DNA from: Deferribacterales bacterium
GTDB taxonomy: Bacteria > Chrysiogenota > Deferribacteres > Deferribacterales > Geovibrionaceae
Assembly (NCBI GenBank): GCA_050251945.1
Contig: JBFWLW010000001.1
Coordinates: forward strand, 544,001-608,000
Reading direction: 5' to 3'
DNA length: 64,000 nt
This document shows, in pieces, positions 7,286-29,033 of the stretch; position 1 is the first letter of the stretch; every line of letters starts with the position of its first letter. A program made the position numbers and the translations under genes. The notes beneath the pieces were generated by a model. It saw only the letters and a program-made list of their open reading frames with translations. It did not search any database and was not told the origin of the DNA.

Positions 7286-7286
7286 T

Positions 7287-11007: not shown

Positions 11008-11083
11008 TATTAGTACTCCCTTATTTGAGAAATAGCGTGATACTCATATGCTGACTTTGTATGTGCTATTTTCACTTGAAATT

Positions 11084-11112
11084 TTGCAAAGTATCATAAA
11101 TAATATTATCAT
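11084..11112 (+). promoter_or_regulatory. Putative sigma70 promoter for the leading-region cluster
   Basis: TTGCAA-17-TATCAT; perfect palindrome ATTACGAT-tt-ATCGTAAT downstream at 11183-11200. Confidence 0.5.
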
Positions 11113-11216
11113 ATTTCTACATCATTTTTATGATGACCCGCCAACAAGCGGCCAAATCGGAACACCACCGAATTATTGTTTAATTACGATTTATCGTAAT
11201 GCCTGTCTATTTGACA

Positions 11217-11302
11217 ATCCCTACGGGGCATACTACCCCGTCTAAGGGATCATAGTGTGCCTGCGTATGGAAATAAAAACACCATATTTGGAGGACACTA
11301 TG
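11217..11302 (+). promoter_or_regulatory. Structured 5' leader, copy 1 (pseudoknot vs RBS-sequestering hairpin)
   Basis: atccct/agggat outer stem, acgggg/ccccgt inner stem, loop catacta pairs with downstream tagtgtg, which can instead pair with aggacacta over the RBS. Confidence 0.7.
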
Positions 11303-12058
11303 TCTAATGTTTCAAATGCAAAAAACGTTTCAGGAAAAATCTTTGTTGAGCTGAAAGATGCGAAAGTTGATAGTGTGACGCTCGATGGCGTCATCATCAA
11401 CGGCTACACATTCACCTTAACAAAAAGGACCGAATACATCGGATTTGAGAAGTTCGAGCATGGCATGACTGTTGAGCTGACAGCTTACCTCAGCCAGAAG
11501 AACATACTCTTTCTGAACACTGTAAGTTTTAAGACCGAAGCTGAACAAGTCACAGAACCTAATACGCTGGGAACGCCCAGAGGCGAAATCAAAAACCTCT
11601 CCAACGTCACAATCACCTCAGTATCCCTCAAAAGTGTCAGTCTTGACGAGAATGAATACTTCTTCTCCAAACACACTGAAAAAACTTTCGAGCCTGCTGT
11701 CGGAATGGTAGTTGACGCTGTGGTTTATGAAACCGCTTCCGGCAGACTCTACCTCAACGGTATTGCTCCTGTAAAAGGTGCTGAAAAAAATGGTTCTGGC
11801 TCATCTGAATCTGGAAAAGAGCAAAAAGACTACAGCAACAACCACAGGCTTTTCGGCTACATCGAGATGGTAACAGAAAAGGCTATCAAAGTTGGCAACC
11901 AGTGGTTTAATCTGACAGAGAAATCCTATGTTGACGAAAAAACTGTCATGGACAAAGGCGAGTATGTAGCTATCTACTTCTACGCTTCGCCCAAAAGCGG
12001 AAACTTTATCAACAAGCTCTATCCGGCAACAGACAAATACTCTAAGAAATCAGCTTAG
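11300..12058 (+). CDS. Hypothetical protein with three tandem beta-rich (OB-fold/DUF5666-like) repeats; start revised to 11300
   Basis: GGAGG RBS before ATG 11300; three repeats of [VI]xxV[TS]xxxxx[IV]xxxxFxL[TS]xxT...GxxVxxxxY....[FY]LN. Confidence 0.65.
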   Translation: MSNVSNAKNVSGKIFVELKDAKVDSVTLDGVIINGYTFTLTKRTEYIGFEKFEHGMTVELTAYLSQKNILFLNTVSFKTEAEQVTEPNTLGTPRGEIKNLSNVTITSVSLKSVSLDENEYFFSKHTEKTFEPAVGMVVDAVVYETASGRLYLNGIAPVKGAEKNGSGSSESGKEQKDYSNNHRLFGYIEMVTEKAIKVGNQWFNLTEKSYVDEKTVMDKGEYVAIYFYASPKSGNFINKLYPATDKYSKKSA

Positions 12059-12066
12059 GGTGTCTT

Positions 12067-12435
12067 ATGGAAAATTATGTTATTGAAAAAAGAGTAGATG
12101 GTAGCGTATTTATCACAGGCACTCTGTCTTCCGACCTAGAATATCTTATTTCCGATAACCAGTTTTCAACTGTTATCGACAAAGACGTTATTCAAAAGAT
12201 GCTCGAAACAGCAGAGTTCGTAACATCAAAAAATCTCTTTGAAGCCTCATTCTTCCATCCTGTCGATTCAGAATTTGTTGATGATGGCGCAGAGGAATTC
12301 GATGAAAACTCTTATGCTGTAACTGGCAGCGGATATGTCATTGTGGACAAGACAACCTTTCAATTGAAAGTGTCTTTGGCACATAATGCAGAGGATCTGC
12401 GGAGCGAGACCATCAACATCTCTGAAATAATCTAA
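12067..12435 (+). CDS. Acidic hypothetical protein
   Basis: 122 aa; roughly 24 D/E vs 8 K/R by hand count. Confidence 0.6.
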   Translation: MENYVIEKRVDGSVFITGTLSSDLEYLISDNQFSTVIDKDVIQKMLETAEFVTSKNLFEASFFHPVDSEFVDDGAEEFDENSYAVTGSGYVIVDKTTFQLKVSLAHNAEDLRSETINISEII

Positions 12436-12504
12436 CCCAATCCGGGGACACTACCCCGGCAGTGGGAACAGTGTCTCCGGTAATCTACCAGGAGACACAT
12501 TATG
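12436..12504 (+). promoter_or_regulatory. Structured 5' leader, copy 2
   Basis: ccca/tggg and ccgggg/ccccgg stems; loop-side gacact pairs with agtgtc; alternatively gtgtctcc pairs perfectly with ggagacac (RBS). Confidence 0.75.
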
Positions 12505-13134
12505 TTTGAAAATCTTTATGCTTACTACGATGGAAGACTCAAAGCAGTGGAAAGAGAACTCATACAAAAACTTGCCGGAATGCCGCTGTTTTTTTATGAG
12601 ACCAGACACGACGATGATGGCGATTGGGTAACTCCTGTTACCATAAAAAAAAGCGTGTTTGTGAATTTCTGCAATACAGTAATCTTTACAGAACCTCTTC
12701 AGTTTGGTGATTCAAACTTCATTGAAATAGATGAAGAAGAGTGGGATTTCGACTTTCCTCAGATACATGAAAGAGGAAATGAATTTGTCCTGCCTGAACC
12801 AATGAGTGAGCACACTGTTATCGTCACTGAAAAATCGGTTTTGGAAGTTACTATCAAAGCAAAGTCGGCCGCCAAGGCTGAAGAAAAAGTCAAGTTTATG
12901 TATTCACAAGGTTCAATATTCATGGATATGGGTAAATACTCTGCTGAGTTCTTTTGTCTGAGACTAAAGAGAGATGATGTCAGAGTAATTGCTGAAAGAC
13001 TCAAACTACCTATTGACGAACAGTCCCTGGATAAATATTTCTCCGCTGTTCAAGAAAGGTATTTTCACGAGTCAGAAGCGGACCCAACAGCATCATGGGA
13101 TCTTCTAGTCGAATACATAATAACGTCTATCTAA
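12502..13134 (+). CDS. Polyvalent-type protein: LPD28-like domain plus DpnD/PcfM-like domain
   Basis: YETRHDDDGDW..PVTI...VFVNFCNTVI (LPD28-like); VIVTE....VTIKAKSA..AEEKV..MY..G.I (DpnD/PcfM-like). Confidence 0.6.
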   Translation: MFENLYAYYDGRLKAVERELIQKLAGMPLFFYETRHDDDGDWVTPVTIKKSVFVNFCNTVIFTEPLQFGDSNFIEIDEEEWDFDFPQIHERGNEFVLPEPMSEHTVIVTEKSVLEVTIKAKSAAKAEEKVKFMYSQGSIFMDMGKYSAEFFCLRLKRDDVRVIAERLKLPIDEQSLDKYFSAVQERYFHESEADPTASWDLLVEYIITSI

Positions 13135-13182
13135 GCGGTTGTCCCTCCGGGGACTCCGCGCCTGCATATGTCAACGTAACAA

Positions 13183-13259
13183 CCCTTACAGGGGATACAC
13201 ATCCCCAGAGGGGCTATCTGTGTGTCCCCTTCAAATCACATTTAAGGAGACACATCATG
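13183..13259 (+). promoter_or_regulatory. Structured 5' leader, copy 3
   Basis: ccctt/gaggg and ggggat/atcccc stems; gatacaca pairs with tgtgtgtc; alternatively tgtgtcccctt pairs with aaggagacaca (RBS). Confidence 0.7.
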
Positions 13260-14114: not shown

Positions 14115-14534
14115 ATGGAAATTTTCGGCGAAGTCATCCACTCATACTCCAGAGCTCAGGCGATCGAAGATGGTATCTTAGTTGATATGTCTGAATATGT
14201 ACCTGAAGGTGAATCCAAGCCTTTGGTAAAGCAGGCAGGATTCAAAGTTCCGCTGGCTGTAACAAGAGCTGTCTACGACAGACTCTTATCTCTTCCAGAC
14301 TCCTACATAGGATGTCAAAGTGTAACAGGTCGTTTTTGGGACATTCTGACATTGCTCCACGCAGAGATAAAACGCTCTGCAGGCGGAGACCAGTTAATAT
14401 TCGGTGTTTACTCCAGAAAAGTGAACAACAACGGATCTGACGGTCGTTTAGAGCTTGTCAAATTAAAAGCTGTCATTGGTCCCGGAGATACACCGGAACC
14501 GGTGTTGACAGTGATGTTCCCTGAAGAGGACTGA
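14115..14534 (+). CDS. DUF6573-like mobile-element protein
   Basis: IHSYSRAQAIEDGILVD...AGFKVPLAVT...GRFWDIL...IGPGD..EPVLTVMFPEED. Confidence 0.7.
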   Translation: MEIFGEVIHSYSRAQAIEDGILVDMSEYVPEGESKPLVKQAGFKVPLAVTRAVYDRLLSLPDSYIGCQSVTGRFWDILTLLHAEIKRSAGGDQLIFGVYSRKVNNNGSDGRLELVKLKAVIGPGDTPEPVLTVMFPEED

Positions 14535-14536
14535 TT

Positions 14537-14764
14537 ATGAAGTACATGATCGATATGGTTATTGGTAAAATGTTAGACTTGGCCAACTACCTCATGACGG
14601 CACTTCTTGTGGCCTACTTTATAGATCCTTCAGCAGGATCTCAGCACAGGCAGACAAGTTTTGGAGCAGCTATGTTTGGAATTTCCATGATATACGCTAT
14701 TTCCATTTTGATAATTCTTGCGCTGAAAGTCAGAGCGGTCTATAATAGGAGGAAGAGGACATGA
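14537..14764 (+). CDS. Small two-TM protein (DUF6722-like)
   Basis: GKMLDLANYLMTALLVAYF pattern; two hydrophobic helices and a basic tail. Confidence 0.5.
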   Translation: MKYMIDMVIGKMLDLANYLMTALLVAYFIDPSAGSQHRQTSFGAAMFGISMIYAISILIILALKVRAVYNRRKRT

Positions 14765-14891: not shown

Positions 14892-14920
14892 AAAAGCCTC
14901 ACCATCGGTGGGGCTTTTTT
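14892..14920 (+). terminator. Rho-independent terminator
   Basis: aaaagcctcacc-atc-ggtggggctttttt. Confidence 0.85.
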
Positions 14921-14959
14921 GCGTTACCTTGCTATTCCGAAATCTCCACTGATAATTTA

Positions 14960-15885: not shown

Positions 15886-16395
15886 TCAGTTATATACCAA
15901 TTTCCGCTTATAATATTCCGCATACTCTTTGATTTTATCCGAATACCGGAAAGCTCTCCATGTCGTTTTACTGTGATAAAAGCCTACAGAGAGCCAGTTC
16001 TGCCCGTTCCTCCGGATTTCTTCACGAAGGATCTCTGCGCCCATGGTGAAGCTATTCTGCATATCCAGACCATAATGATATGGTATGTTGAACTTCCTGA
16101 ACCAGAAGCTGTTTATCTGCATCACGCCTACGTCGAAGCTCTTGCCGGCAGAAAGAGCCGACTGGATAATTGAATATGCCTCTTCCTGGCTCTTCGGCTG
16201 ATACCCTTTGCCGGCAACGTTTACCGCATAAGGATTGAACCCACTTTCTGCATGAGCGACAGCAAGCAGCAGCCACTCCGGGATTCCAGTTCTGGCTGCC
16301 GCATATTTCGTTGCTGTGAGGATTTCAGGAGTCACAGAGGCCCATGATATACCACAGGCCATAAAGATGATTATAGACAAAATCAGGCGTTTCAT
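15886..16395 (-). CDS. Lytic transglycosylase (VirB1/TrbN-like)
   Basis: Signal peptide; AESGFNPYAVN, DVGVMQIN, VGFYHS. Confidence 0.9.
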   Translation of the reverse strand: MKRLILSIIIFMACGISWASVTPEILTATKYAAARTGIPEWLLLAVAHAESGFNPYAVNVAGKGYQPKSQEEAYSIIQSALSAGKSFDVGVMQINSFWFRKFNIPYHYGLDMQNSFTMGAEILREEIRRNGQNWLSVGFYHSKTTWRAFRYSDKIKEYAEYYKRKLVYN

Positions 16396-16907
16396 TTGCT
16401 TTGTACTTTGATTGTTGCCATTGATCGAAAATAAATGTCTAATTCACATGGCTTGACTTTATCTATCTTTGCCATTGTAATAAATACATCATATGAGTTT
16501 GGAGCTTCATATGCCATTTCAGTGAGGGATGGCAAAAAAGCTTTTAAACATGCCATATCCTTATTGGCTATTACATCTTTGGTCAAACTTATTGAAAATA
16601 TTTCAAGATCCATAGGTTGGTCATAGATAATTGCCATATCTGTGAACACTTTCATTACTGTTGGCATTATAGTTTGCATAGTATACAACATTTTCAACCT
16701 TTCTTCATTTATCTCAATAGGTTGCGGTCGGCTATTTGAGTTTGATAATTCAGTTATCTGAAAATGCTCAGATAGATATTTTTGTTCAGAGACTAGACAT
16801 TCAATTGTATTTTTGTCATGGAAGCAAGGAGAGTGAATATTTAACTCATCTGCTAGAGAGATGCTAAAGGAAAACAAACAACTTAATAATAAATATATCT
16901 TTTTCAT
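16392..16907 (-). CDS. Secreted hypothetical protein, AT-rich
   Basis: MKKIYLLL... signal peptide after a GAGG RBS. Confidence 0.55.
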   Translation of the reverse strand: MKKIYLLLSCLFSFSISLADELNIHSPCFHDKNTIECLVSEQKYLSEHFQITELSNSNSRPQPIEINEERLKMLYTMQTIMPTVMKVFTDMAIIYDQPMDLEIFSISLTKDVIANKDMACLKAFLPSLTEMAYEAPNSYDVFITMAKIDKVKPCELDIYFRSMATIKVQSK

Positions 16908-16935
16908 TTTATACCTCAAATTCTAATTTTATTCT

Positions 16936-17235
16936 TCACTGATTAGAAGATTTATTCTTTTCAATAAATGCGAGATACTCTTCGCAGCTAAAGTCCTTCA
17001 CCCTAGCCACTTCGGAAACAGTATCATATACCTCAGGATAAGAATATCTCATCCCTAAAAGTATCCCGTACAGTTTTTCAGGACATTGCTTCTCTTCATC
17101 GATGATTTTCTGAAGTGCTGCGCCGTCAAAAGCGTGGTTTTGTTTCTGTTCACTCTTCAGATTCCAAAATATAATGCCAAATACAAAAATAACTCCTACT
17201 ACTGCATAAATAATATGCGTTAATCTCGTTTTCAT
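16936..17235 (-). CDS. Membrane-anchored hypothetical protein
   Basis: N-terminal TM helix, two Cys, GGAGG RBS. Confidence 0.6.
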   Translation of the reverse strand: MKTRLTHIIYAVVGVIFVFGIIFWNLKSEQKQNHAFDGAALQKIIDEEKQCPEKLYGILLGMRYSYPEVYDTVSEVARVKDFSCEEYLAFIEKNKSSNQ

Positions 17236-17245
17236 GATGACCTCC

Positions 17246-17941
17246 TTATTTTATCATCTGCCTTATCACAGGATCCGCACCGCTGATGACTTTACCGTCT
17301 ATGATAAAGAATGGCGTACCGCGCACTCCAAGCTGCTGTGCTACATCCATCATCTTTTTCAGCGTTGTTTTGCCGGCTTCACAGGTGTCAGTCTTGAATG
17401 AATCGGCTTTGCCTTCAGATACGGCTTTCAATACCTTCTCGTATTCTGTTGCAGAATCTTTTGAACAGAGGATGTGTACCGAAAGGCGCTCGGCGTTTTT
17501 ATGGAATGAAAGAGGGAAGAAATAAATATAACGATTGACGTCGGCATCCTTGAAGAATTCCTCTGCTTTAAGACAATACGGACACTCCGGGTCAGTGATT
17601 TCTATAACCTCTTTTTTGCCGCTGCCGACTTTCAGAGCTATGGATTTGTCAATCTGATTCGCCATTTTCGCCGTCAGACCGTTGATTTTTTCCTGAGTGA
17701 TATCTTTGCCAGTGAAATCGAACATGTGTCCCATAAGGATGTAGCTGCCATCTGAATACATGATGTTCCCGCCGGCAACAACTTCATAAAGTCCCGGAAT
17801 CTCCGACTCTATAACATCCGTGATTTTGAAGTTTGTAAACTGCTCTGTCAGCTTGCGTTTAACATCTTCAGCCTTATCACTCGCGTAAGCACTGAGAGCC
17901 AGACACAAGCATAAAATAATTAAAAGGATCTTCTTTTTCAT
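17246..17941 (-). CDS. dsbC: DsbC-family thiol:disulfide isomerase (conjugation-associated)
   Basis: Signal peptide, GLYEV dimerisation domain, TDPECPYC, GVRGTP. Confidence 0.9.
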   Translation of the reverse strand: MKKKILLIILCLCLALSAYASDKAEDVKRKLTEQFTNFKITDVIESEIPGLYEVVAGGNIMYSDGSYILMGHMFDFTGKDITQEKINGLTAKMANQIDKSIALKVGSGKKEVIEITDPECPYCLKAEEFFKDADVNRYIYFFPLSFHKNAERLSVHILCSKDSATEYEKVLKAVSEGKADSFKTDTCEAGKTTLKKMMDVAQQLGVRGTPFFIIDGKVISGADPVIRQMIK

Positions 17942-18255
17942 AATAAACTCCATTTCTTTTTATTCTCTTCCGGAGCGATAAACTCATTTCCGGTATACAG
18001 CGCTCTTTCTTCAAACATTGCAGACTTATATGATTGCCCGTTCAGCATCCGCCTTATAACAGCCAAATGTACACTAAGAGGAATAATCGCAAGATGTGGC
18101 GGATGTCTTTGACTATCTTCAAATAATGCCTGCCATTCCTCAATATTCTCAACAGCTTCTCTCTTCGATGCATTTCTGATAAAAGTGTCAATGAGACTGA
18201 TTGACACAGCTCTATATGCCTCACACTGGTTCTTATATGATGCTGCTGTTTTCAT
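17938..18255 (-). CDS. Hypothetical protein
   Basis: Overlaps both neighbours in the operon. Confidence 0.5.
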   Translation of the reverse strand: MKTAASYKNQCEAYRAVSISLIDTFIRNASKREAVENIEEWQALFEDSQRHPPHLAIIPLSVHLAVIRRMLNGQSYKSAMFEERALYTGNEFIAPEENKKKWSLL

Positions 18256-18484
18256 TTGTCCCCATAATCGTTGTCAGCATTCCCCTTCCCTTTGGGCTTA
18301 ACGAAAAATACAATATACCGCCCTTTTCCGATGCAGTTATAAGCCCTTCTTTGCGCAGATTATGAAAGCAAACCCATGTGGACATGATGCATGCCTTATG
18401 GATCTCCGTTGTCAACTCATCGAAGGACAATTCCGTAGTCTCCAGAACAAGTGCGACTTTCTGCATCTCATGCGACATTATCAT
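18233..18484 (-). CDS. Small winged-helix protein
   Basis: LSFDELT...LRKEGLI......YFSLSPKG wHTH-like pattern. Confidence 0.5.
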   Translation of the reverse strand: MIMSHEMQKVALVLETTELSFDELTTEIHKACIMSTWVCFHNLRKEGLITASEKGGILYFSLSPKGRGMLTTIMGTNENSSII

Positions 18485-18813
18485 GCAAGTTCCTTGGCTC
18501 GTTTGTACTCTTTAAAGCCGCATTTTTTATGAATCTTTGCGACTACCCTATCCAGCTCTCTGGCTTTATCGTAAAACTCCTGAATAAGACTCGTTACTTC
18601 CTCAGCTGAATATCCTTCCTGAAACAACCTTGTCTTCAGCGTGCTTATCGCGATATCAGCTTGTGACATTATCAGATAAAGGATGTGGCTCTCCGGAGTA
18701 CGTGTTAACATCACTTTTGAATCGGGGCGTTTTGCCATCTCAAGTTTGCGATCCAGAGTGTTTTGCCTGTGTGCCTGCTTATCCTTTTTATTCAGTGAAT
18801 TATTTTCTGCCAT
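18481..18813 (-). CDS. Hypothetical helical protein, weakly AcaB/DUF1845-like
   Basis: PES..LY..MSQAD.AI..L...L...G.S.EE pattern and tra-operon context; weak similarity only. Confidence 0.35.
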   Translation of the reverse strand: MAENNSLNKKDKQAHRQNTLDRKLEMAKRPDSKVMLTRTPESHILYLIMSQADIAISTLKTRLFQEGYSAEEVTSLIQEFYDKARELDRVVAKIHKKCGFKEYKRAKELA

Positions 18814-19504
18814 AGCCTTTCTCCATAGTTTTCTTTTTATTTTCCGACCTGAAGTAAAATACCCAGCAAGCCGCTATATAAGCGATACATATGAAAAAGA
18901 TCCAAAGAGAGCTTGAAATAAGCACTTCTTTTGCATCCTGAATCCAGTAGAAGATCTTCGTGCGGATATCTGCGGGGATGAAACCGAGTTTATCAAGAAC
19001 GATGTATACATTCCGCTCAGTAAAAACCATGAAATAAAGAAGGTGATATACGATAACTGACAACATTGCTTTGATTATGCTGCCGATGCTCACTCCTGTG
19101 TACAGATTTGCGAGCATCCGTTTTGTTATTTCTCCTGCATTGAATGTTGCCGCATATCCGTAAAAAAAGACATATGCAAGGCTGAACATAAGCGTTACGG
19201 CAAATATATAGACAGTATCAAGCATGGTTCGCTCCGCGTGTCCGAAGAGATGTACTTTGTCCATAAGAACGCCCATCAGCACCGGCATAAAAAGTATCGT
19301 GAAAAGACCGCCGTGCAACACACTTTTAAATCCAAGCATGAAGTATTCCATCTGCATATCGAGCGTGAAATAGTCTTTTGGGATATTACTTCCGCCGGAC
19401 TCCGCAACTGAATATCTCTGGATTTCAGATACAGCCTCAAGCATATTCAACGGTTTATGCCTTTCGCCGCCGACTTCAACAGGAACAACAGTTTCGTTGC
19501 TCAT
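18800..19504 (-). CDS. Multi-TM membrane protein of the conjugative region (start revised to 19504)
   Basis: About four TM helices; ATGA overlap with the upstream gene. Confidence 0.65.
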   Translation of the reverse strand: MSNETVVPVEVGGERHKPLNMLEAVSEIQRYSVAESGGSNIPKDYFTLDMQMEYFMLGFKSVLHGGLFTILFMPVLMGVLMDKVHLFGHAERTMLDTVYIFAVTLMFSLAYVFFYGYAATFNAGEITKRMLANLYTGVSIGSIIKAMLSVIVYHLLYFMVFTERNVYIVLDKLGFIPADIRTKIFYWIQDAKEVLISSSLWIFFICIAYIAACWVFYFRSENKKKTMEKGYGRK

Positions 19505-19707
19505 AAAGCCCCCCGGAAGAACGCATAAACGGAATATCCTACAGCCACCGCAACAGAAGCTAAAACACAAACTCCACCCGCTCTGGGAATCCTGCGTTTA
19601 AACGTTAACCACCCGCCGAGAAGAAACAGTAAAACGGCTATCAATACCGCTACGTTGCCCGAAAAACTTTTAAAAATTATTTCCGTAAATCTGGCATAGC
19701 TTTCCAT
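19501..19707 (-). CDS. Small two-TM protein, pilin (TraA/VirB2)-like
   Basis: AGGAG RBS before ATG 19707; two hydrophobic helices joined by KRRIPR. Confidence 0.4.
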   Translation of the reverse strand: MESYARFTEIIFKSFSGNVAVLIAVLLFLLGGWLTFKRRIPRAGGVCVLASVAVAVGYSVYAFFRGAL

Positions 19708-19715
19708 GTGTACTC

Positions 19716-21875
19716 CTATTGTTCCGTACTGCTGCAAATCATATCTTTAACTGCATCCGTGATTGAGCTGAAAAGACTTATTACTTCATTGAAACTGTTC
19801 GTACATGCGCAGCCTGATAAAAGTGTTTCAGATGCACTGTCATAGGGACACGTTCTTGCTCCGGTGGAGTAATCAGTACCGCATGGACGTTGTTCTTGCA
19901 CCACTGCAGAGGTGTCAGAACGTGTTTCCTGATCAGGAAACACCGTTGTGTCCTGATTCCCGGTTTGTACAGTACATGTATATGAACAGGTCTCATAGCT
20001 ATCAAAATCCAGCTTCACGTTGCCTGAAGCAACTCCGTCTTCCGTGATATAGCTGAAATCGCCGGAATCTTTATCAAGCGTCCCGCCAACCATATCTGCC
20101 TGTGCCTTTGCCCCTGAAAAATCGTATGAAGTGCCATCTTGGCACACATAAGTGCGCTTAATTGAAAACCACTCAAGACCGTCATTTTTTGATGAAACTA
20201 TCTCAGTGGAATTAGACGAAATTGCTTGAAAGCTATTACCTGAATCACAGAGCATAAACTGATTATAAGTAGCTGAAACAGTCTTACAGACACTCTGTGG
20301 AGATATGTTCATTTGGGTATAGTTTACAATAGTGTCAGTATCATTGACAATTTCGCTTTCTAACCTGCAATCCGAGTCCTGCGCTAAAGCCGCACATGAA
20401 TTATTTCTGGAGATATGAACCGTTTCATTTCTTGTCATAGTAAGCATCATAGAAGTGTAAGAGTTATTGGCAGTACCGTATTTCCCTACATCAGCGTAAT
20501 GAGATAATTGACAAACAGATTCTGAACAAGAAATAGAATAATAAAGAAGCGCACTTACTGTACCACCATCTGAACCCCAACTTACTTTTACAGTGGCACC
20601 AGAACTCTGATCTCCGCCAGAGTAATTGTTCAATATTACGGACTGCCATCCATTTGATGAATCATAATCACATCGAAAATAGCTTTCTCCCTGTAATTCA
20701 CAATCCAGTTTAAAACGTACTTTTTCACCACGCCCGTCGCCATCTTCATCAATACACTGATAATGTTCAGTAAATTGCCTATCTGAATACCCTGTTCGTT
20801 GAACTATCTTTGTTGTGACACCACTGGGAGTACACCAGTATTCAGCTGTACTACCAGTCTCAACAATCGGGGTATTAGTAATTGAACATTCATGGACTGA
20901 AGCTGTTTTATTCGTCTGAGAAATCATTGTGTTATACATACTATCAGAATCTGCCATCTGCTCTGTCAGTTTATCGTCGTAATCAATATTTCCGGTCTGA
21001 TAGAAGCTCTTCAGCTCGTCAACAGTATCATCTGACAAATCAGTACACGAAGCCGCAGAAGCGGCGTAATATTTGACTGACAGAGTGGACACGTCAACAT
21101 CTGTGTTAGTGAGCGCCAATCCCAATTCTGACATCATGTGCCCGGTGAGTGCGCCGCCGAAATAGCTCAACGCGTTATGAAATACTCCGTTAAAACTGCT
21201 ACCACATGACGCGTTGGAACAGAAACAGCCACCGGCGTGGCGCATTTCTGTAACACTTCTCTGAAATGCCAGAGTTTTATTATCAGAAGGCTTGCATACG
21301 CCGGAACACGCCGCATCACATTCTCTGTATGTGTTGTATTCAGTCCCGCCGTTGCATTTATGCTTAATGCCGAATTCGTAGTATTTGCAGTTCTGAAATG
21401 TTCCGGGAGTACAACTGACATACCCATTTGTACAGAATCCCGATATATTTGATGTTGTAAAACTTGTGTCCGCGGTGCCGTCCAAGTCAGTGTCGTATGT
21501 AATTTTAAGGCTGACTTCGCCGCCTGCAGGAAAAGTATACGGCTGCACTGTTACAGCCTCGGTTGACGACGTACACTGGAGTTTCGCGTCAAAAGAATAA
21601 ATCACACACGACTGAGAACAGGCGGCAGCACATTCACTCTGAGTTTCATACGCTGTGTCTTTATCCTGGCATTTCCATGATTCCTGCAAAGTGTTCATTT
21701 TAACGCCCTCGCCAACAAGAGGGTTATACAGTTTAGTTTTTATGTTTGATTGGCTCGAATATGTATCAGAAAGGGATTTACCGATAGTTTTACCGCTATT
21801 TGTCGCGTCGGATTTATCATCCGCATATGAAAAAAAAGGCAAAAATAACAGCGCACACACCAGAATGTATTTCAT
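19716..21875 (-). CDS. Large secreted Cys-rich protein, TraN N-terminal-like mating-pair protein
   Basis: Signal peptide; ISGFCTNGYVSC.PGT..NC, GGCFCSN.SCG; next to TrbC/TrhF/TraN. Confidence 0.6.
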   Translation of the reverse strand: MKYILVCALLFLPFFSYADDKSDATNSGKTIGKSLSDTYSSQSNIKTKLYNPLVGEGVKMNTLQESWKCQDKDTAYETQSECAAACSQSCVIYSFDAKLQCTSSTEAVTVQPYTFPAGGEVSLKITYDTDLDGTADTSFTTSNISGFCTNGYVSCTPGTFQNCKYYEFGIKHKCNGGTEYNTYRECDAACSGVCKPSDNKTLAFQRSVTEMRHAGGCFCSNASCGSSFNGVFHNALSYFGGALTGHMMSELGLALTNTDVDVSTLSVKYYAASAASCTDLSDDTVDELKSFYQTGNIDYDDKLTEQMADSDSMYNTMISQTNKTASVHECSITNTPIVETGSTAEYWCTPSGVTTKIVQRTGYSDRQFTEHYQCIDEDGDGRGEKVRFKLDCELQGESYFRCDYDSSNGWQSVILNNYSGGDQSSGATVKVSWGSDGGTVSALLYYSISCSESVCQLSHYADVGKYGTANNSYTSMMLTMTRNETVHISRNNSCAALAQDSDCRLESEIVNDTDTIVNYTQMNISPQSVCKTVSATYNQFMLCDSGNSFQAISSNSTEIVSSKNDGLEWFSIKRTYVCQDGTSYDFSGAKAQADMVGGTLDKDSGDFSYITEDGVASGNVKLDFDSYETCSYTCTVQTGNQDTTVFPDQETRSDTSAVVQEQRPCGTDYSTGARTCPYDSASETLLSGCACTNSFNEVISLFSSITDAVKDMICSSTEQ

Positions 21876-22630
21876 CTGTAATACCCGTCTGACCTGAGCA
21901 TTTCTATCAATGTCGCGGCGGAATCTGCACCTGCCGCTTTGAAATGTTCGAGAACATACTCAAGGGTTGTATCTCCTGATAATTTCAGGAAATCATTTTC
22001 AGAAAGTTTTTCGCCTTTTGAAGCCATCATCATTATCTCTGAGTAAGGCTTTTTGGACATGACGAACGCCGGAACAGCCTTTATTGAAAAGGTACGGAAC
22101 AAATAAGGGTTCAGATCGGTGCGCACAATCATACAGTCAACGTTCTCTTCCTTCAGCTCATCAACGTTCTTTCCGCATGAGATTCTTGTCAGCAGATTTA
22201 CAGTCGGCATGATATAACTGATACTTCCAACAGTTCCGTTAAGCACCATAGTTGCCGGAGGAATGTTTTTGAGTTGCGATGCATAATACCTGAGTGTTTC
22301 TTCGGGCATCGATGAGCTTATAAAGACATAAAGTTCGATATCGCCAAGGTTTTTCTGTTCATAGCACGTTTCCTCAGGTTCATCGTATCCGAACCCCTCT
22401 GTCAGCTTGCTCTTCCATGTCTTAACGCTATCCAGCAATTCAGGCATCCCGTCTTTTTCAAAATCGCTGACCTTCTTTTCAATCGCAGAATCTTTGATTA
22501 TAGGAATTTCAATAGGTTCTGCTTTTTTGAGGTCATGAAGTTTTTTTACCAGATCTGGATTGAGGCTCTGCGGTTCTTCCGCAAAAGCTCTAAAACACAG
22601 GAGTAACAGTACCAATAATATTTTTTTCAT
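21872..22630 (-). CDS. trbC: F-type conjugative pilin assembly protein TrbC
   Basis: LYVFISSSMPEETLR.Y...VLNG...LNPYLFRTFSI.AVPAFV...GDTTLEYVLEH. Confidence 0.85.
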   Translation of the reverse strand: MKKILLVLLLLCFRAFAEEPQSLNPDLVKKLHDLKKAEPIEIPIIKDSAIEKKVSDFEKDGMPELLDSVKTWKSKLTEGFGYDEPEETCYEQKNLGDIELYVFISSSMPEETLRYYASQLKNIPPATMVLNGTVGSISYIMPTVNLLTRISCGKNVDELKEENVDCMIVRTDLNPYLFRTFSIKAVPAFVMSKKPYSEIMMMASKGEKLSENDFLKLSGDTTLEYVLEHFKAAGADSAATLIEMLRSDGYYR

Positions 22631-23054
22631 CTAAAAAACCCCATATACGAGAATCGTAACTTCTGAAATGTGTTCCGGTCATGAAATATTTTCCGGAAGG
22701 GACAGCTCCATTGAAATAGAATTTCATATTCTTTGGATCACGGCGTATTGCAACGAGAACGCCATCGCAATAAAAGGCGTTATCATCACTTGACAAGTGA
22801 TTGCCACTAACACAGGCAATTTTTTTCACTAGCTTCGCATCTTCAGGTAAAATGTTAAGCGGATCCGCCTGACTCCTAAAAAGTATATAATCCCCTTCAT
22901 GAAATTCCCTCTTTGACTTATTAATGACATAGAGGGTAAATGGCACCGATTTTGTGATATTCACCCCGATGTTACTCAACGTCATGTACATAATCAAATA
23001 CCCCCCCCCTATCAAAGCAGTAATAAACAACAGTCGTTTTTTCACTGATTTCAT
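22590..23054 (-). CDS. S26-family conjugative signal peptidase (TrhF-like)
   Basis: NITKSVP (Ser), LVKKIAC (Lys), SYDSRIWG. Confidence 0.85.
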   Translation of the reverse strand: MKSVKKRLLFITALIGGGYLIMYMTLSNIGVNITKSVPFTLYVINKSKREFHEGDYILFRSQADPLNILPEDAKLVKKIACVSGNHLSSDDNAFYCDGVLVAIRRDPKNMKFYFNGAVPSGKYFMTGTHFRSYDSRIWGFLDEKNIIGTVTPVF

Positions 23055-26014
23055 TGGCTTACCCCTGTGGGCAGAGTTATATTCTCAAAGGTCTCTTTGA
23101 TGTTATTTGTGATGTTCTCGTTAAGCTCCGGGACAACATACTCTTCTATCCATTCATCAAAGCTGATTTTACTGAAATCCAGTTTTTGAAACTCTTCCGG
23201 AGTGAATCCGCGACAATTCGGTGCTTTTGCGCTACCCCAACCGATATCAAGCTGAGGTCTGCCCTGCTCAATTATGATCCTTGCAAGCGCACTGCCGAAA
23301 CAGCAGTAAGTCTTTTTCTTTTGCACACACACGCCGACCCATTTTTCAGAGCAATATTCCCCCACTTCATGGCACTGTCCATCAAGTTTTCCCCAGCTCC
23401 GCAGAGATGAAAGCATTTGTTCCTTCGGATTGCATTTCGCAAGTCCGAGCCAATCCTTTTTCTTCTTACAACAATCAGAAAATCCTGTCTGCGCTCCGGG
23501 TTTCCGGCATCTGTTGTCGTTGCCGTTGAATATATAAATACTTCCCAAACAATTGCCTTCATCGTCTGTTTCTCCATCGGCAAGGATATCGTTTGCTCCT
23601 TCAGTGGTATCATCATTCGTGTAATTTGATTCATCCGTTGCGTTGTAGCATGGATATTTACTGCACTTCCACTGCCCGCCAGTCTCAATACATGGCTGAC
23701 CGTTGTAAGGACATGCATACCCGGTAAGGCATTGGTTCTGCGCGGAATTATAGCTTCCGCTTGAACATGTTGGATTGTTTTCACACAGTTTTAGAGAGGA
23801 ATTGTATGTGTAGTCCGTGGCACAGGTTATAGTCGGCAACTGTGCGCACTTGTCGATTGTGCTTGAATAACTTCCCGCTGAACAACTTGGCGCGAGTTCA
23901 CATTTATCCGTTGAGGCGTTAAACGTATAACCCGCCGAACAAAGTGCCGCAGCATAGAGTATACATGTATCCAGTGTAGCGTCATATACTCCGGACGAGC
24001 AAACTGGAGCTGAGTAACACACATTCCCACTCATTGCATAACCATTTGGGCATGATGAAGCAACTGTAAGAGCGCATTTGTCAGTTGCTGTGTTGAGTAG
24101 TCCACCTGAGCCACACGTTGGCGAAGAGACGCACATATTCAGTGCTGAATCATACGATGTACCTGATATGCAGTCTTTTGTTGTAGATATCTCACAGCGA
24201 TTTGTAGAATTGTTATATACCCCGCCACCGGAGCAAACAGGGGCGCTGATGCATTGTGAGCCTGATGCCGTAGTTCCGGCTGCGCATCCTGCTGCAAGAC
24301 ATGATGCTGCCTGCACACATGATGAGCCATTATATGTATAACCAGTTGGGCAGGTATCATCAACCCATTGCCCTAATTTAACATCAGTTAATGCCGTACC
24401 ACTTGCTAAATGATATTGCATATGGACAGAACCATCTGCTGCGTACCACCAAACAGTGTAAGCTCCTCCAGAATACGTTTCGGTATAAGAACTGCCACGA
24501 TTTACTGTGTATAAAGATTCTCCTGGTAGTGTTTTTATTATTACTACTGACTCAGAACCGGTTAACTCGACATTATCAATTTGTGCTGATGATACAACAA
24601 AACCGCCAATACTTGGCACTGACGTATAACATTTACTGATACATGAGGTGCTTGAACTGTAAAGAGTTCCGGTTACTGAACATGTGTAATTATTCGATGC
24701 CTCACACCTGTCCGCACTTGAGTTAAACGAACCTGTCAGACATGTTGGCGTTGAGATACATGTGCTACCAGATAAAGTGTAATCTACTGGGCAGCTTAAA
24801 GTTGCCGAAGCGAGACATTTGTTTTTGCTGGCATTATATGTTGTACCGCTCGGACAGACCGGTGCAGCTTCGCAAACTCCAGTTGAAGAATTGTATGTGT
24901 ATCCTGCGGAGCATGTGTATGTTACAGCAAACTCACACCGATCTGTAGATGTGTTATATGTTCCTGCGGAGCAATCAGGGGTTTTAACGCACCCGTTGTT
25001 CGTTGCATCATATGCGTATCCGGATGGGCAACTTCCTGTTCCAAGAATTACCTCACAGAGGTCTGTTGCTCCGTTCAGTATGCCGCCGGTCGCACATGTG
25101 GCAGACATCACACAACGTTCCAGCGATGAGTCGAAACTCATGTTTGCATGACAGAGTATATTTCTCGCTAACTCACATTTATCAGACGCTGTATTTAGAA
25201 CTCCCCCGCTGCCGCAACTCGAATTTGCCCACTCAGCATCACAGGTCGCCTGCGCCTGCGGGCAGAGATATCCGCCAGAGGTTCCCTCCGTACATTGGTA
25301 TATTTCAGTTGAGTCGGTGCAGAGATAGCATTTATCGGGATTATCAGTGCAATAAGAACTTATCATATCATCGGGTTCAACTTTCTCTGTTGGCATAGTC
25401 CCAGTAACACATCCAAGCTGTCCGTTGAATTCTACAAGAGCCGGATGGTTCATAGGCTGTCCGGAGTGTTCCCCGGTGTCACTCCATCTGCCTTCGCCAT
25501 CCATCAGAACCCAGTGTTCGCCGTAAACGGTAACGTTACCGATGTCGCTGCCGCTCACTGCGTTATCCGGCTGCCCAGAAGCCCAATTTCTGTGATTGAG
25601 CAAAGTACCGTCACGCCACTCAAAACGCGTGTCGCCTGTTGAACCCAGATTCTGGGTTTTGTCAGGATCGTACAACCCTATCCACGCCGATGAAGCTCCG
25701 CTGTAACTCACAATATGCTTCAGCAGTGTGTTTATATCTGCATTACGGACAATCGCTGAGGACTGAAAAGAAGTCCACGCCCCCTCGGTTTGCGTGAGCG
25801 CGTATGTCGTATTTGTTGAATTGTCATAGACAAAGTTTTTATATGACGAGCTGCATGTGCCACCGGAAGAAACCAGCTCTGTACAGCTTTCAGCGCATTG
25901 AGACTCGCAAAACGCCAGAGAATCATATGTTGCACCGTTATCCGAACAGAGCGCAGGCGCGCCGAACGAAACTGAGGCCCAAAGGAATATCAATAACAGT
26001 ATGGATTTTTTCAT
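23051..26014 (-). CDS. traN: TraN mating-pair stabilisation protein with N-terminal C-type lectin domain and Cys-rich repeat stalk
   Basis: Canonical TraN C-terminus (CHEVGEYCS...YCCFGSALARII.EQGRPQL..GWG....PNCRGFTPEEFQKLDFSKI); WIGL...W.DG...NW..GQPDN...E.WV.M...G.WSD. Confidence 0.88.
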   Translation of the reverse strand: MKKSILLLIFLWASVSFGAPALCSDNGATYDSLAFCESQCAESCTELVSSGGTCSSSYKNFVYDNSTNTTYALTQTEGAWTSFQSSAIVRNADINTLLKHIVSYSGASSAWIGLYDPDKTQNLGSTGDTRFEWRDGTLLNHRNWASGQPDNAVSGSDIGNVTVYGEHWVLMDGEGRWSDTGEHSGQPMNHPALVEFNGQLGCVTGTMPTEKVEPDDMISSYCTDNPDKCYLCTDSTEIYQCTEGTSGGYLCPQAQATCDAEWANSSCGSGGVLNTASDKCELARNILCHANMSFDSSLERCVMSATCATGGILNGATDLCEVILGTGSCPSGYAYDATNNGCVKTPDCSAGTYNTSTDRCEFAVTYTCSAGYTYNSSTGVCEAAPVCPSGTTYNASKNKCLASATLSCPVDYTLSGSTCISTPTCLTGSFNSSADRCEASNNYTCSVTGTLYSSSTSCISKCYTSVPSIGGFVVSSAQIDNVELTGSESVVIIKTLPGESLYTVNRGSSYTETYSGGAYTVWWYAADGSVHMQYHLASGTALTDVKLGQWVDDTCPTGYTYNGSSCVQAASCLAAGCAAGTTASGSQCISAPVCSGGGVYNNSTNRCEISTTKDCISGTSYDSALNMCVSSPTCGSGGLLNTATDKCALTVASSCPNGYAMSGNVCYSAPVCSSGVYDATLDTCILYAAALCSAGYTFNASTDKCELAPSCSAGSYSSTIDKCAQLPTITCATDYTYNSSLKLCENNPTCSSGSYNSAQNQCLTGYACPYNGQPCIETGGQWKCSKYPCYNATDESNYTNDDTTEGANDILADGETDDEGNCLGSIYIFNGNDNRCRKPGAQTGFSDCCKKKKDWLGLAKCNPKEQMLSSLRSWGKLDGQCHEVGEYCSEKWVGVCVQKKKTYCCFGSALARIIIEQGRPQLDIGWGSAKAPNCRGFTPEEFQKLDFSKISFDEWIEEYVVPELNENITNNIKETFENITLPTGVSQ

Positions 26015-27732
26015 TAGCTCTCCTCCCCGTATTTCGGCTTGACTGTTACGATTTCTTTAAGGATGCCGCTTTTTCGGCTCTCAAGTTCTGATACATCCCC
26101 GAACGCCTCGGAGACCAAAGGAGTATAAAATGCTTTCTTAAATGAAGAGCCGTCTTTAAATTCAACGGTAAATGGTGCGGAGAAATAGCCGTTTTTAATC
26201 AAACCATCGGCGATGAGCCTGCGTTCACGGAGCATCTCCGTTACAGTAAAAAGATAATTACGCCGCTGATCCTGATCCGCATCGGCAAGAAGGACTTCCT
26301 CATGAAATGATTCCCTTGAGAGCTTTTTCAGGATTTTCCAAAGTAGGTCAGTTTGAAAATAAACAACATTATCCGGCATACTGAAAGCGTCAAAACGTTT
26401 TCCGTTTATAACGTTAATCTTGCTGTCCAGTTCAACAATGAACTTATCAATATCAAGCCAGGACAGTTCTGCCTCTGAAGGTCGCTTTTCGTCTTGTGTT
26501 TCCACTACCGTGCCAAAAATTCTATCAGACTGCTGAGACTGCTTGTTATGTTCTTGTGGCGCATACACGTCTGCTACATCAAGCTGCGGAAGAACCGAAG
26601 CAAGTTCCTTTCTCCTGGCATTTCTGTCTGCTTCTCGCAGCAGATCTGCTAACTCTCCCCCGCCGGTTCTGTGATGACTTAAAATAGCCGTCTCAACATC
26701 AGTTTTATATGAAAGCTCCGAAAAACCTTCTATCCCGTTCAGAAGCAAAACCGATATCCGTGGATGGTCCCCCATTGAATACATGGCCTTGTCCAGTGCC
26801 TCTGACTTACCGATATCATGCCCAAACGCAGCAAGCAGAAGCTGTGCAGAATATGCTCCGGGATTTTTAACAAGTTTAAGGACCTCTTCTGCAACATTCA
26901 GAGAATGCCGCCAAAGATACACTTTTGAGAGAGCAGCATATGTGGACGGCTCTGAATACGGATTTACGTCCGTGCTACGGTTAACAACAGATGGACAGTC
27001 GCCCTTTTCATCAAGCAGCCTCATCACAGCTTCAATGATTTTTTCAGCCGGTAATCCAGCAACGTGATTCTTATAGAACAGAGTGAAATCATATTTATTA
27101 AAAACTATTTCCGCTTGTTTTTGTATTTGCTCCGGTTTGTTTTCTGTCAGGTTGCGGATATCCGCGACCTGCTTTTTTCCTGTCCATAGACCTGAAAGCG
27201 TTTCCAGAGCTATCTGCTGTTTGTCTTCTTTTTTTTTGATTTCAGCTTTAGGATTTGCAATCACGATTATGATGAACAAAATTGTCAAAGAAAACCAAAC
27301 GGGGCAAAATCCATTAAAGACCCCTGCAATAAAAATCACCCCAATCATAATGCCGGCAAAGACAACCTCGGATATCTTTCCAGTTCTTGCCTCTTTAAGA
27401 CCGTAACCGGCTTTCAGAGGATTGATGAACGGAACGCCCGATACAGTTAAAGCGTCCGCATAAATATGCAGGAGAGCGCCGATTAAAAAGAAATAAACAA
27501 AAGACATGCCGAAATATGCGGAAATCAGAATTGAAAATATATAAATAAGCCACCAATGGCTTGTTTTACGATGAACTTTTTTCCAAAGAGTTTCATTGCC
27601 CATGGAGATAAACCTGTCGATAACATCAGGCAGAACAGACCCTGCCGTAAGTGCGCCTATTATCGCAAAATCATATTTTGCCGTTGCAAAGCCATAAACG
27701 GCGCCGATAGCAATGTGACTTTTCCATTTCAT
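26014..27732 (-). CDS. Fusion of YdjM-like membrane metal-dependent hydrolase and HD domain (MOBH relaxase-like)
   Basis: SH...GSVLPD.ID...HRKTSH...HIYADALT.SGVP; then HSLNVAE...HDIGKS...H...SHH...AD; directly downstream of traD. Confidence 0.7.
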   Translation of the reverse strand: MKWKSHIAIGAVYGFATAKYDFAIIGALTAGSVLPDVIDRFISMGNETLWKKVHRKTSHWWLIYIFSILISAYFGMSFVYFFLIGALLHIYADALTVSGVPFINPLKAGYGLKEARTGKISEVVFAGIMIGVIFIAGVFNGFCPVWFSLTILFIIIVIANPKAEIKKKEDKQQIALETLSGLWTGKKQVADIRNLTENKPEQIQKQAEIVFNKYDFTLFYKNHVAGLPAEKIIEAVMRLLDEKGDCPSVVNRSTDVNPYSEPSTYAALSKVYLWRHSLNVAEEVLKLVKNPGAYSAQLLLAAFGHDIGKSEALDKAMYSMGDHPRISVLLLNGIEGFSELSYKTDVETAILSHHRTGGGELADLLREADRNARRKELASVLPQLDVADVYAPQEHNKQSQQSDRIFGTVVETQDEKRPSEAELSWLDIDKFIVELDSKINVINGKRFDAFSMPDNVVYFQTDLLWKILKKLSRESFHEEVLLADADQDQRRNYLFTVTEMLRERRLIADGLIKNGYFSAPFTVEFKDGSSFKKAFYTPLVSEAFGDVSELESRKSGILKEIVTVKPKYGEES

Positions 27733-29033
27733 ACTTCTGCCCTCGGATAAACTACATCAATGTACAAGTCGCTTACTGCGTTGGTTTTACCGAAATATGC
27801 TCCATCGTAGTTGAGCATAAAAAACTCACGGCGCCCCAGGTTCAAAACATCCTCAACCTTCAACACATCTGCTTCAGTCTCTCTGATGTTCAACACTCCG
27901 GACGTACTCATCATGCTCGTCATCTGCTTTTCAACTCCGAAATGGCGGCAAACGTATTCTGCAGTTTCAGAGTCCGGTACCCGCATGAATCCTTTGTTGT
28001 TTGTGTTGTCGAGAATTGAATTGCCAAAACTCCTGTCAAGCATGGCGTAGATCTGGTTGACACTCTGACAGAACCCAAAAAGCTGGACATTTGCACCGCC
28101 AGCTTTCGCAAAGAAATCGTCAATGCCCTTATAAAGAACGTTTTGAGCTTCATCCATGATGATCTGAAGAGTTGGCTGCACTTTTCTTCCTGAAGAAAAA
28201 ATACGACCGGTATAAGCCTGAAGCATAGAAATCAGAACCTTGCCGACCGTGAACGCCGCTTTCCTTGTTATCAATGAACCGACCTGCGCAACAAGGATTA
28301 CGCCTTTACCACTCTCCAGTTTGTCTATAACAGGATTGCCGCGCGCATGTCCGATGACCTGTCCAATGTTACCGGATGTCAGCTCCATCAGCGCAACACG
28401 AAGAGAACTGGAAACTTTGTTGTAATAATCCTGTCCGGAGTCCACTATTTTTTTGAGATCCGCAGCGAGCTGACGTGTGCTGTCATCGCCCGCTATCGTC
28501 TCAACTTTTTTCTGCAAAGTCTCAAGATCATGGTGAGACACAACGTCTTTGACATCGTTAAAGTTAAATCTCTCCCCGTATTCCTTTTTCGTAAGTACCA
28601 TGAACGCCTGCACGATCATCAGAGACGTTTCATAAGCAACGTTGAAAAAGAAGGGCTCTTTTCCGACCTCGATACCGGCTATAAGGTGTCCGACAAGTTC
28701 CTCGATCATGTAGTAATGTTCAAGCGGGTTCAGTTGGATGCTGTATTGTGGAAAAATCGGGGATAACAGCATTAAATCATCTTCGCGTTTGGCTTCCAGC
28801 GCCACCTGCGTTATCTTGCTGAAAAGTTCAACATCACCTTTCGGATCAATAATAACAACCGAATAACCTTTATTGATACTCTGCTCAACGATGTTCTCTA
28901 TCATGCGGGTCTTACCAACCCGTGTGGTACCAAAACACCAAAAATGACCGGAAAGATCAGCATCATTGATTGCGATATCTATTTCTTTGTCCCGCTGGAC
29001 AAGTCTGTGTCCGCGTCCGATATACGTCTTCAT
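27729..29033 (-). CDS. traD: Type IV coupling protein TraD (SXT/TOL-like), without N-terminal TM helices
   Basis: GHFWCFGTTRVGKT, IIDPKGD, LNPL, MDEAQ, GGA..QL..FCQS..Q, ILDNTN...RVPD.ETAEY. Confidence 0.9.
   Translation of the reverse strand: MKTYIGRGHRLVQRDKEIDIAINDADLSGHFWCFGTTRVGKTRMIENIVEQSINKGYSVVIIDPKGDVELFSKITQVALEAKREDDLMLLSPIFPQYSIQLNPLEHYYMIEELVGHLIAGIEVGKEPFFFNVAYETSLMIVQAFMVLTKKEYGERFNFNDVKDVVSHHDLETLQKKVETIAGDDSTRQLAADLKKIVDSGQDYYNKVSSSLRVALMELTSGNIGQVIGHARGNPVIDKLESGKGVILVAQVGSLITRKAAFTVGKVLISMLQAYTGRIFSSGRKVQPTLQIIMDEAQNVLYKGIDDFFAKAGGANVQLFGFCQSVNQIYAMLDRSFGNSILDNTNNKGFMRVPDSETAEYVCRHFGVEKQMTSMMSTSGVLNIRETEADVLKVEDVLNLGRREFFMLNYDGAYFGKTNAVSDLYIDVVYPRAEV

Follow-up and report, generated by a model that had tools for sequence, protein, structure and literature searches.

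We asked what three short structured leaders do in the establishment operon of an F-type integrative and conjugative element (ICE) of ~63 kb, part of which lies in a 64,000-nucleotide stretch of a Deferribacterales genome (GenBank assembly GCA_050251945.1, contig JBFWLW010000001.1, positions 544,001 to 608,000; this whole stretch is the window, and positions are given in its coordinates unless another locus is named). The leaders, copies 1, 2 and 3, stand before genes 1, 3 and 4 of the plus-strand operon, and their positions were confirmed by reading the window sequence (Table 1). We consider the best explanation to be that each is a cis-acting mRNA leader predicted to work as a translational switch with two states, OFF being the default, and that it is likely flipped by a ribosome that comes from the upstream gene and opens the 5′ CCC of the leader, a reading to which we give a probability of roughly 0.5.

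A preliminary description of the window had given each leader a CCC/GGG outer stem, a GGGG/CCCC inner stem and a loop complementary to a downstream GTGT segment, and had noted that the same GTGT..CC segment is complementary to GGAG(G)ACAC just before the ATG. All of these elements are present, and the last complementarity is a perfect 8 bp in copy 2 (12471-12478 with 12491-12498). Six recurring segments make up the leader from 5′ to 3′: O5 (CCC), A (GGGG and the loop), B (CCCC), O3 (GGG), C (the anti-loop and YCUCC, which is complementary to the Shine-Dalgarno sequence, SD) and D (the SD and spacer). In the predicted OFF fold, O5 pairs with O3 and A with B to form a long hairpin, H1, and C pairs with D in an anti-SD:SD hairpin. 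In the predicted ON fold, A and C form a rod with an inner B:O3 hairpin and the SD is free; the two folds are mutually exclusive. The minimum fold of each window copy is H1 followed by a second hairpin that buries the SD, with computed OFF and ON energies of -36.8 and -26.3 kcal/mol for copy 1, -35.5 and -24.5 for copy 2, and -29.6 and -24.9 for copy 3. Folding z-scores of the three copies are -5.0, -5.7 and -4.1, and none of 200 shuffles was equally stable. By computation the OFF fold lies ~8 kcal/mol below the ON fold. Among 12 copies from four genomes, OFF is the minimum-energy fold of the complete leader in 11, and a leader truncated just before the SD folds as A:C with the small B:O3 hairpin in all 12, at -23 to -28 kcal/mol.

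The preliminary description had cast the second state as an H-type pseudoknot. The loop:GTGT complementarity on which this was built exists; it is not confined to the loop, and extends into the GGGG strand, so that in each of the three window copies A and C can form a helix of 10-12 bp. Because it uses the GGGG strand, this helix forms in place of the inner stem and cannot stack on it. H1 loops are 6-8 nt in the window copies and 3-5 nt in 32 of 64 family copies, and, together with the behavior of the truncated leaders, this favors the A:C rod with B:O3; an H-type pseudoknot would be at most an intermediate.

The leader is present in 12 of the 68 genomes of the phylum, with up to ~14 copies per operon. 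A first covariance model matched 13 of the 68, and one genome (G031) was then removed, its single match, before an IS21 istB gene, being discarded; in the remaining 12 the matches are clustered and on a single strand. A descriptor scan returned 78 matches in 16 loci, 77 of them on the operon strand, and 64 copies from 11 genomes were retained after leaving out 7 from a near-duplicate genome, 6 that were mis-parsed and 1 antisense match. Copies are 69-84 nt long with a mean column identity of 55%, and there is one per gene. All leader-bearing regions compared in the phylum belong to one F-type ICE family. When a second model, built on the OFF structure, was run over 800 kb of ICE and flanking sequence, every match at E <0.001 fell inside an establishment operon (some as antisense mirrors), and two weak matches (E ~0.005) fell outside. 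Within the 3.07-Mb window genome, a descriptor derived from the window copies has exactly three matches, namely copies 1-3, a result that is circular as proof of existence and informative on the absence of further copies. A switch test applied to all SD-bearing starts of the genome was passed by 7 of 3375, three being the window copies and the other four unclustered; a looser, earlier version was passed by 13 of 2439 starts and missed copy 3. Rfam has no gathering-level match in the window and none at E up to 10 in 11000-13400, and over 25 related loci it returned nothing beyond chance matches and a group II intron.

If both folds matter, both should leave a trace in the way copies vary. An 86-copy alignment was fitted to the OFF fold only, with the ON pairs unused in fitting, and was compared with 500 shuffles and with slid registers; relatedness among copies was ignored in these controls. 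OFF pairs are 86.5% paired (74.9% in shuffles) with 230 double changes (83 in shuffles), and for ON pairs the figures are 82.0% (74.3%) and 141 (70); neither result was reached by any of the 500 shuffles. The number of ON pairs with at least one double change, 10, is not above shuffles (78/500). In slid registers pairing drops to 43-68%. Two ON-only column pairs that do not involve pairing with the SD, 10-82 and 11-81, carry 21 and 23 double changes. Independently of any alignment, the best partner of A among copies of the same locus is its own C in 45 of 64 cases against 12 expected; own-partner counts are 47/64 for the two arms of H1 and 23/64 for C with D. Comparison of the ON rod with H1 alone shows the rod to be the more stable in 55 of 62 copies. 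These results bear out the earlier proposal of a multicopy, covarying and predicted translational switch before ICE establishment genes. Judged from the folding models, the leader very probably serves to occlude the SD, and we think it probable, with some less assurance, that the ON fold is put to use.

We then considered how the predicted switch would be thrown. RNA folding is better on the sense strand in 56 of 62 copies, and 82 of 826 H1 pairs are G-U, which together argue that the structure acts on the mRNA strand. Opening the region from SD to AUG costs 8.0 kcal/mol (computed, n=62 copies). This falls to 3.1-3.2 kcal/mol if the leader is blocked over, or shortened by, its first 4-6 nt, rises to 10-11 kcal/mol when 14-20 nt are blocked, so that A is covered too, and reaches 12.2 kcal/mol when H1 is deleted. 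For copies 1, 2 and 3 the cost is 9.4, 11.2 and 5.6 kcal/mol, going to 3.7, 5.2 and 0.6 once O5 is blocked. The low cost with O5 freed, and the lock-off when A is covered or H1 is gone, point to A as a latch that holds the anti-SD and is stored in H1. Moreover, the invariant C and G runs derive from the SD through the pairing chain D-C-A-B-O3-O5, and a sequence-specific binder is therefore unneeded; a sequence-blind opener is enough, and the simplest such opener would be a ribosome.

Under the ribosome reading, the leader would rest with O5:O3, A:B and C:D formed and the SD buried; a ribosome arriving from the upstream gene would open O5, the freed 5′ arm of H1 (A) would capture the anti-SD C, and the SD would be released as the ON rod forms. 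Translation would then be handed from gene to gene as a relay, which at the first copy would start from a conserved 5′ leader RNA or another input, and the expected outcome is that transcripts made by leakage are not translated and that the genes of the operon come on together once the element has been transferred. Spacing is consistent with this for many copies: a terminating ribosome melts roughly 8 nt, and among 57 copies with an upstream open reading frame (ORF) the distance from its stop codon to O5 is at most 8 nt in 21, 9-25 nt in 20 and more than 25 nt in 16. The stop is thus within 25 nt in 41 of 57, and the linker is poor in G (59% A, 6% G). In IncC plasmids, deletion of vcrx089-090 impaired the function of downstream ssb, bet and exo, for which the authors suggest a probable polar effect (PMC7498323).

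Several observations weigh against this reading. Only 21 of the 57 stops lie within ~8 nt, and the 16 beyond 25 nt include that of copy 3, which starts 48 nt past the upstream stop; a hidden small ORF was absent in 13 of 14 long-gap copies checked, and no conserved upstream ORF was found in or before the copies, first copies included. Five intrinsic-terminator-like hairpins lie within the operon of genome G040, three of them ~35-45 nt upstream of copies, and a plain relay would be broken there unless the terminators are antiterminated. With O5 blocked, copy 2 still needs 5.2 kcal/mol for opening, and the refolding barrier is high (mean 21.6 kcal/mol, computed without pseudoknot paths). The bet gene of SXT is translated poorly despite high transcription (PMC4542580). 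Finally, the A:C covariation could in part be a by-product of A and D both matching C, and the shuffle controls are blind to kinship among copies. As a separate observation, the five G040 hairpins (L096 at 7403, 8268, 8910, 9294 and 10448) are near-identical and suggest antitermination.

The main rival to the ribosome relay keeps the same two-state switch and has it flipped at each copy by a trans-acting protein or small RNA, which would act on the A-rich linker and O5 or block H1 folding during transcription, and which might be loaded at the 5′ leader like an antiterminator. Such a factor would account for first and long-gap copies, which have no ribosome nearby, and for the conserved 5′ leaders ahead of first copies; it would give recipient-specific timing directly, and antitermination is suggested by the G040 terminators and by the U-runs that follow H1 in 10 of 64 copies. 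On the other hand, no small regulator common to 11 ICE regions was found at BLAST level in regions that are incomplete (the recurring families were the type IV secretion system, ParM, integrase, ArdC-like and SSB), the OB-fold protein of gene 1 occurs in only 4 of 68 genomes, and loops vary freely. We regard a trans factor as rather unlikely. Gene 1 was itself considered as a universal regulator and rejected, as it was not found in eight other leader-bearing genomes. In genome G063 (L099 at 9234, 11144 and ~11560), 5-9 U directly follow H1, which may there double as a transcription terminator.

We think it improbable that the leader is a static brake, in which the C:D hairpin alone would have a function, that of damping toxic genes, and A would match C simply through the duplication of copies. 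The OFF fold is indeed the minimum in 11 of 12 copies, and published accounts go no further than an attenuator by which the ribosome-binding site is sequestered (RBS; PMC4542580, PMC7498323). Yet H1 weakens repression, from 12.2 to 8.0 kcal/mol, the ON-only columns still covary, and the ON rod exceeds H1 alone in stability in most copies. Equally hard to credit is a kinetic timer, in which the ON form or an H-type pseudoknot would form before the SD emerges and decay to OFF, so that only fresh transcripts are translated. It draws on the A:C fold of all 12 transcripts cut before the SD, on the window loops, whose 6-8 nt could serve as a toehold, and on a C-D spacer of up to ~170 nt in some copies; against it, H1 is the first to form and is strong (mean -23.7 kcal/mol), loops are short in half of the 64 copies, D mostly lies 10-30 nt past C, and barriers are high. 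Copies before ssb (L093 4883-5121; L101 14845) carry a structured ~170-nt insert between C and D and retain the C:D complementarity.

A DNA-level element, either a single-stranded DNA (ssDNA) promoter like Frpo or a recombination site that shuffles gene cassettes, fits the establishment-gene context and the gain, loss and exchange of leader+ORF units at the leader start, but is very improbable given that the pairing is aimed at the SD and start codon, that H1 contains G-U pairs and the sense strand folds better, and that -10-like boxes number 9/64 against 13 in shuffles; the ssDNA-level structure entertained in the preliminary description is likewise not supported. For want of the same enrichment we rejected internal sigma-70 promoters at the copies. 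A hairpin with a U-run on the antisense strand (44/64) was also set aside, as it is a consequence of the A-rich linker and does not count as separate evidence. Among related ICEs, leader+ORF units are inserted, lost or exchanged at the leader start or close to it, with loose ends at 12435 and 13127, and between LPD28 and ArdC G006 has ssb and unknown-gene units additional to those of the window genome (G000). Exchange of cassettes is probably a secondary use of the repeats.

The genes behind the leader in the phylum are ssb, RecT, a PD-(D/E)XK nuclease, radC, a DUF6094 methyltransferase, an SNF2 helicase, ArdC and many small ORFs; named records with the same leader or with close ArdC relatives are Deferribacterales. 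The leader is absent before the ArdC-like genes of G013 and G052, and that of G013 (L010 ~8560-8690) is preceded by a structured leader of another type, which includes an anti-SD segment. Outside the phylum, scanning GTDB with a pattern from which the SD was left out gave 60 loci, many of them chance matches or dispersed repeats. A complete leader before an SD-bearing ORF was found in 19 of 23 selected loci, with two or three copies in 16. These loci belong to Anaerolineales, Thermoflexia, Geobacter and other Deltaproteobacteria, Alpha-, Beta- and Gammaproteobacteria and Bryobacterales, and the genes behind the leader are RecT, YqaJ, AAA/CbbQ, DUF3150, VWA, radC and DUF6094. Judged by sequence, the leader family spans at least five phyla. 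A match in Sulfurisoma was rejected as a dispersed repeat. An identical repeat at contig ends of one genome (L125, L126, L166, L168, L174) fits H1 and C, has no SD, and is perhaps the end of an insertion sequence. Viral contigs had no pattern matches, metagenome scans with ArdC and gene 1 confirmed nothing, and 26 ArdC-like GTDB loci (23 searched) contained no further leader-bearing element.

IncC plasmids carry leaders before many genes of the host-defence-evasion (hde) region, including bet. Model R2, built from the phylum, matched the IncC plasmid pVCR94 at E values down to 1e-8, with vcrx089 at 8e-4 and bet at 3e-3 (83 kb searched), and the leaders of vcrx089, ssb, bet and exo share the O5-A-B-O3-C-D layout and both folds. 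No leader was found at the six tra genes of pVCR94. Among later starts, 22 of 40 fit a loose pattern (one of them with a hairpin of another kind), and the strict switch test is passed by 16 of 36; this test is one which the bet leader of pVCR94 failed and that of a 99% identical relative passed. Of 80 bet loci, 78 were tested: all 23 that have hde-type or tra neighbors carry the leader, as does 1 of the 55 that do not, and an opposite-strand control gave two matches in all. Loci L189-L191 were rejected as SXT (59% Bet identity), as they have IncC-like gene order and match Vibrio plasmids. In pVCR94, six elements lie 132-205 nt from the annotated upstream stop, each preceded instead by a repeated leader motif, which we count in favor of the ribosome reading; 6 of the 7 matches to the motif are 9-30 nt before an element. 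A motif of this kind in IncC-like plasmids, a small hairpin with an AGCUG loop followed by an A-rich run ending in CAGCA, stands just before elements without a nearby stop at 10128, 11170, 16002, 20438, 24837, 28619, 31751 and 34872 of L182, and also in L184-L189 and L192. The motif may form a small H-type pseudoknot and probably belongs to the published rptI repeat; it has no Rfam match.

Among described systems, by sequence the leader belongs with the bet attenuator of SXT and IncC elements, the tie running through the IncC leader sequences and, for SXT, through its description. A strong translational attenuator upstream of bet was reported in SXT and is also present in IncA/C, where its function was untested in that account (PMC4542580, summarizing Garriss 2013), and a structure predicted to sequester the RBS was reported for vcrx089 of IncC (PMC7498323). 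The preliminary description had called the leader unannotated, which does not hold for this member. Folding and covariation give the window copies the same trait, a hairpin that sequesters the SD of an establishment or recombination gene, and they are homologous to the IncC vcrx089 and bet leaders in the same gene context. The differences are that the attenuator is described in the passages available as a single SD-occluding structure, with no mention of its presence outside Gammaproteobacteria, whereas the window family is multicopy, has the H1 latch and the ON fold, and occurs in other phyla. The brake is thus already in print, and the additions made here are a multi-phylum family, a predicted second (ON) state and a defined trigger site. 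The literature searched, which lacks most subscription papers, yielded no account of a multicopy family or of an ON fold. A 2013 SXT paper reportedly lists several predicted attenuators, and newer work on hde translation may exist; our searches showed neither.

The best functional analogue would be the rep pseudoknot switch of ColIb-P9, IncB and IncL/M (PMC4705826), where a segment of an upstream hairpin captures the anti-SD strand and keeps the initiation region open after a ribosome event. The ColIb-P9 leader peptide ends inside the inhibitory hairpin, whereas no conserved upstream ORF is seen in or before our copies; the ColIb-P9 switch is single-copy, with its loop blocked by an antisense RNA, whereas the leader here has many copies and a rod as its ON state. 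Loop sequences differ among copies of one operon, which argues against one shared antisense RNA. The radC RNA motif (RF01754; PMC2864571) is also a multicopy leader of proteobacterial mobile elements, and some rows of its alignment end in a hairpin that reads CCC..GGGA..UCCC..GG, equal to H1. Its core of three upstream hairpins is absent from this leader, which matched no Rfam family in the window or the 25 loci, and the likeness was assessed on H1 alone, as anti-SD and SD segments fall beyond the alignment rows compared. STAXI (RF01728), which likewise lies near ssb, anti-restriction and other DNA-handling genes, consists of tandem pseudoknots with UUCG loops in Enterobacteriales that are not linked to an SD (PMC2864571); such pseudoknots are absent here and no match appears at E up to 10. 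The leader is not STAXI, a match that the preliminary description had left open. Repeated structured sequences upstream of establishment genes also occur as EGeRS1 of pLS20 (PMC8708921) and as Frpo (PMC11541004). EGeRS1 regions are 400-750 bp, >60% identical and one per operon, and block read-through by a mechanism not known, whereas the leader is ~75 nt and one per gene; the word 'attenuat' does not occur in the available text of the pLS20 paper, contrary to the earlier reference to attenuators in that plasmid. Frpo has -35/-10 boxes in a DNA stem, whereas the leader has no promoter boxes in or beside its stem. A possible repeat in ICEclc was dropped, since the paper checked has no occurrence of 'repeat'.

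The remaining features of the operon and its surroundings are given in Table 1.

Table 1. Leader copies, genes and signals of the establishment operon, with the neighboring conjugation block (window coordinates).
Feature	Position	Strand	Details
Candidate sigma-70-like promoter of the establishment operon	11076..11104	+	TTGAAA-17-AATAAT; consensus match only
Three-hairpin 5′ leader	11120..11180	+	Hairpins 11120-11135, 11138-11151, 11157-11171; conserved
Copy 1	11217..11302	+	O5 11217-11222, A ~11223-11235, B 11236-11241, O3 11245-11250, C 11253-11262, D/SD 11290-11300, ATG 11300
Gene 1, 252 aa	11300..12058	+	Three repeats of a small OB-fold-like domain; weak DUF5666
Gene 2, 122 aa	12067..12435	+	No Pfam match; without leader; stop codon abuts O5 of copy 2 (gap 0)
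Copy 2	12436..12504	+	O5 12436-12439, A 12442-12452, B 12454-12459, O3 12463-12466, C 12470-12480, D/SD 12491-12498, ATG 12502
Gene 3, 210 aa	12502..13134	+	LPD28 and DpnD-PcfM-like polyvalent-domain protein
Copy 3	13183..13259	+	O5 13183-13187, A 13190-13201, B 13201-13206, O3 13208-13212, C 13219-13230, D/SD 13246-13254, ATG 13257
Gene 4, 282 aa	13257..14105	+	ArdC-N and metallopeptidase; ArdC-like anti-restriction protein
DUF6573 gene and 75-aa membrane ORF	14115..14764	+	Close spacing; without leaders
Terminator-like hairpin and T-run closing the operon	14895..14921	+	Seen by eye in the sequence; absent from scan output
Conjugation block of the same ICE	15886..30440	-	SLT, DsbC, TrbC, TraN, HD-domain relaxase-like, TraD-like, SSB

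From its sequence, the three-hairpin leader is a candidate starter of the first switch. Its third loop, RACACCA, is invariant in four ICEs, and it also occurs in genomes G006, G009 and G011, with compensatory changes in the stems. Copy 1 follows this conserved leader as the far-from-stop elements of pVCR94 follow their repeated motif. The loops of the three-hairpin leader could pair with a UGUU slightly downstream (window; loci L007, L008, L009), and the placement of this leader ahead of the first switch resembles that of radC RNA in proteobacterial elements. Gene 1 gave an S1/CSD-like feature match at 0.82, which is a lead only, and its homologues are in the same four genomes whose proteins made the profile. 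Relatives have one to four OB-fold-like repeats, with an SSB-like N-terminal part in G009 and G011, and a protein search found four homologues. No leader copies were found in the conjugation block, and the ICE ssb gene that lies there, outside the operon (29958-30440), is without leader; the topoisomerase gene of the ICE (G000 C1:526730; L013 2730) has an SD-occluding hairpin without H1. Farther upstream, before the window begins (C1:511.7-543.4 kb), are the integrase, a ParM-like gene and traL-traG. AT-rich cargo adjoining the operon (155-11007), with a helicase-DUF2726 gene, a pPIWI-associated nuclease, a RES-Xre toxin-antitoxin pair, a DUF4238 protein and a 428-aa ORF without Pfam match, looks like a defence island.

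The leader bears on how elements without Frpo promoters or known repressors achieve recipient-only, brief expression of anti-restriction and repair genes. In IncC, hde genes must be expressed anew once in the recipient (PMC7498323), and translation is described as under strong attenuation (PMC4542580, for SXT bet); how the block is released is unstated in the passages available. With a length of 75 nt, an OFF and an ON fold that are both predicted, and a trigger site of 4-8 nt, the leader is a well-defined candidate switch that simple reporters could test. Given the split among bet loci, it is also usable as a marker of establishment genes and can flag unknown anti-defence genes across phyla. 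More tentatively, and at less than even odds, we suggest that it represents a cross-phylum family of toehold-like RNA switches before most genes of F-type/MOBH anti-defence operons, acting as a translational relay or as a bank of switches thrown by one factor, that fires only in a new host. If true, zygotic induction would have a third route, in addition to the dilution of a repressor and the use of ssDNA promoters.

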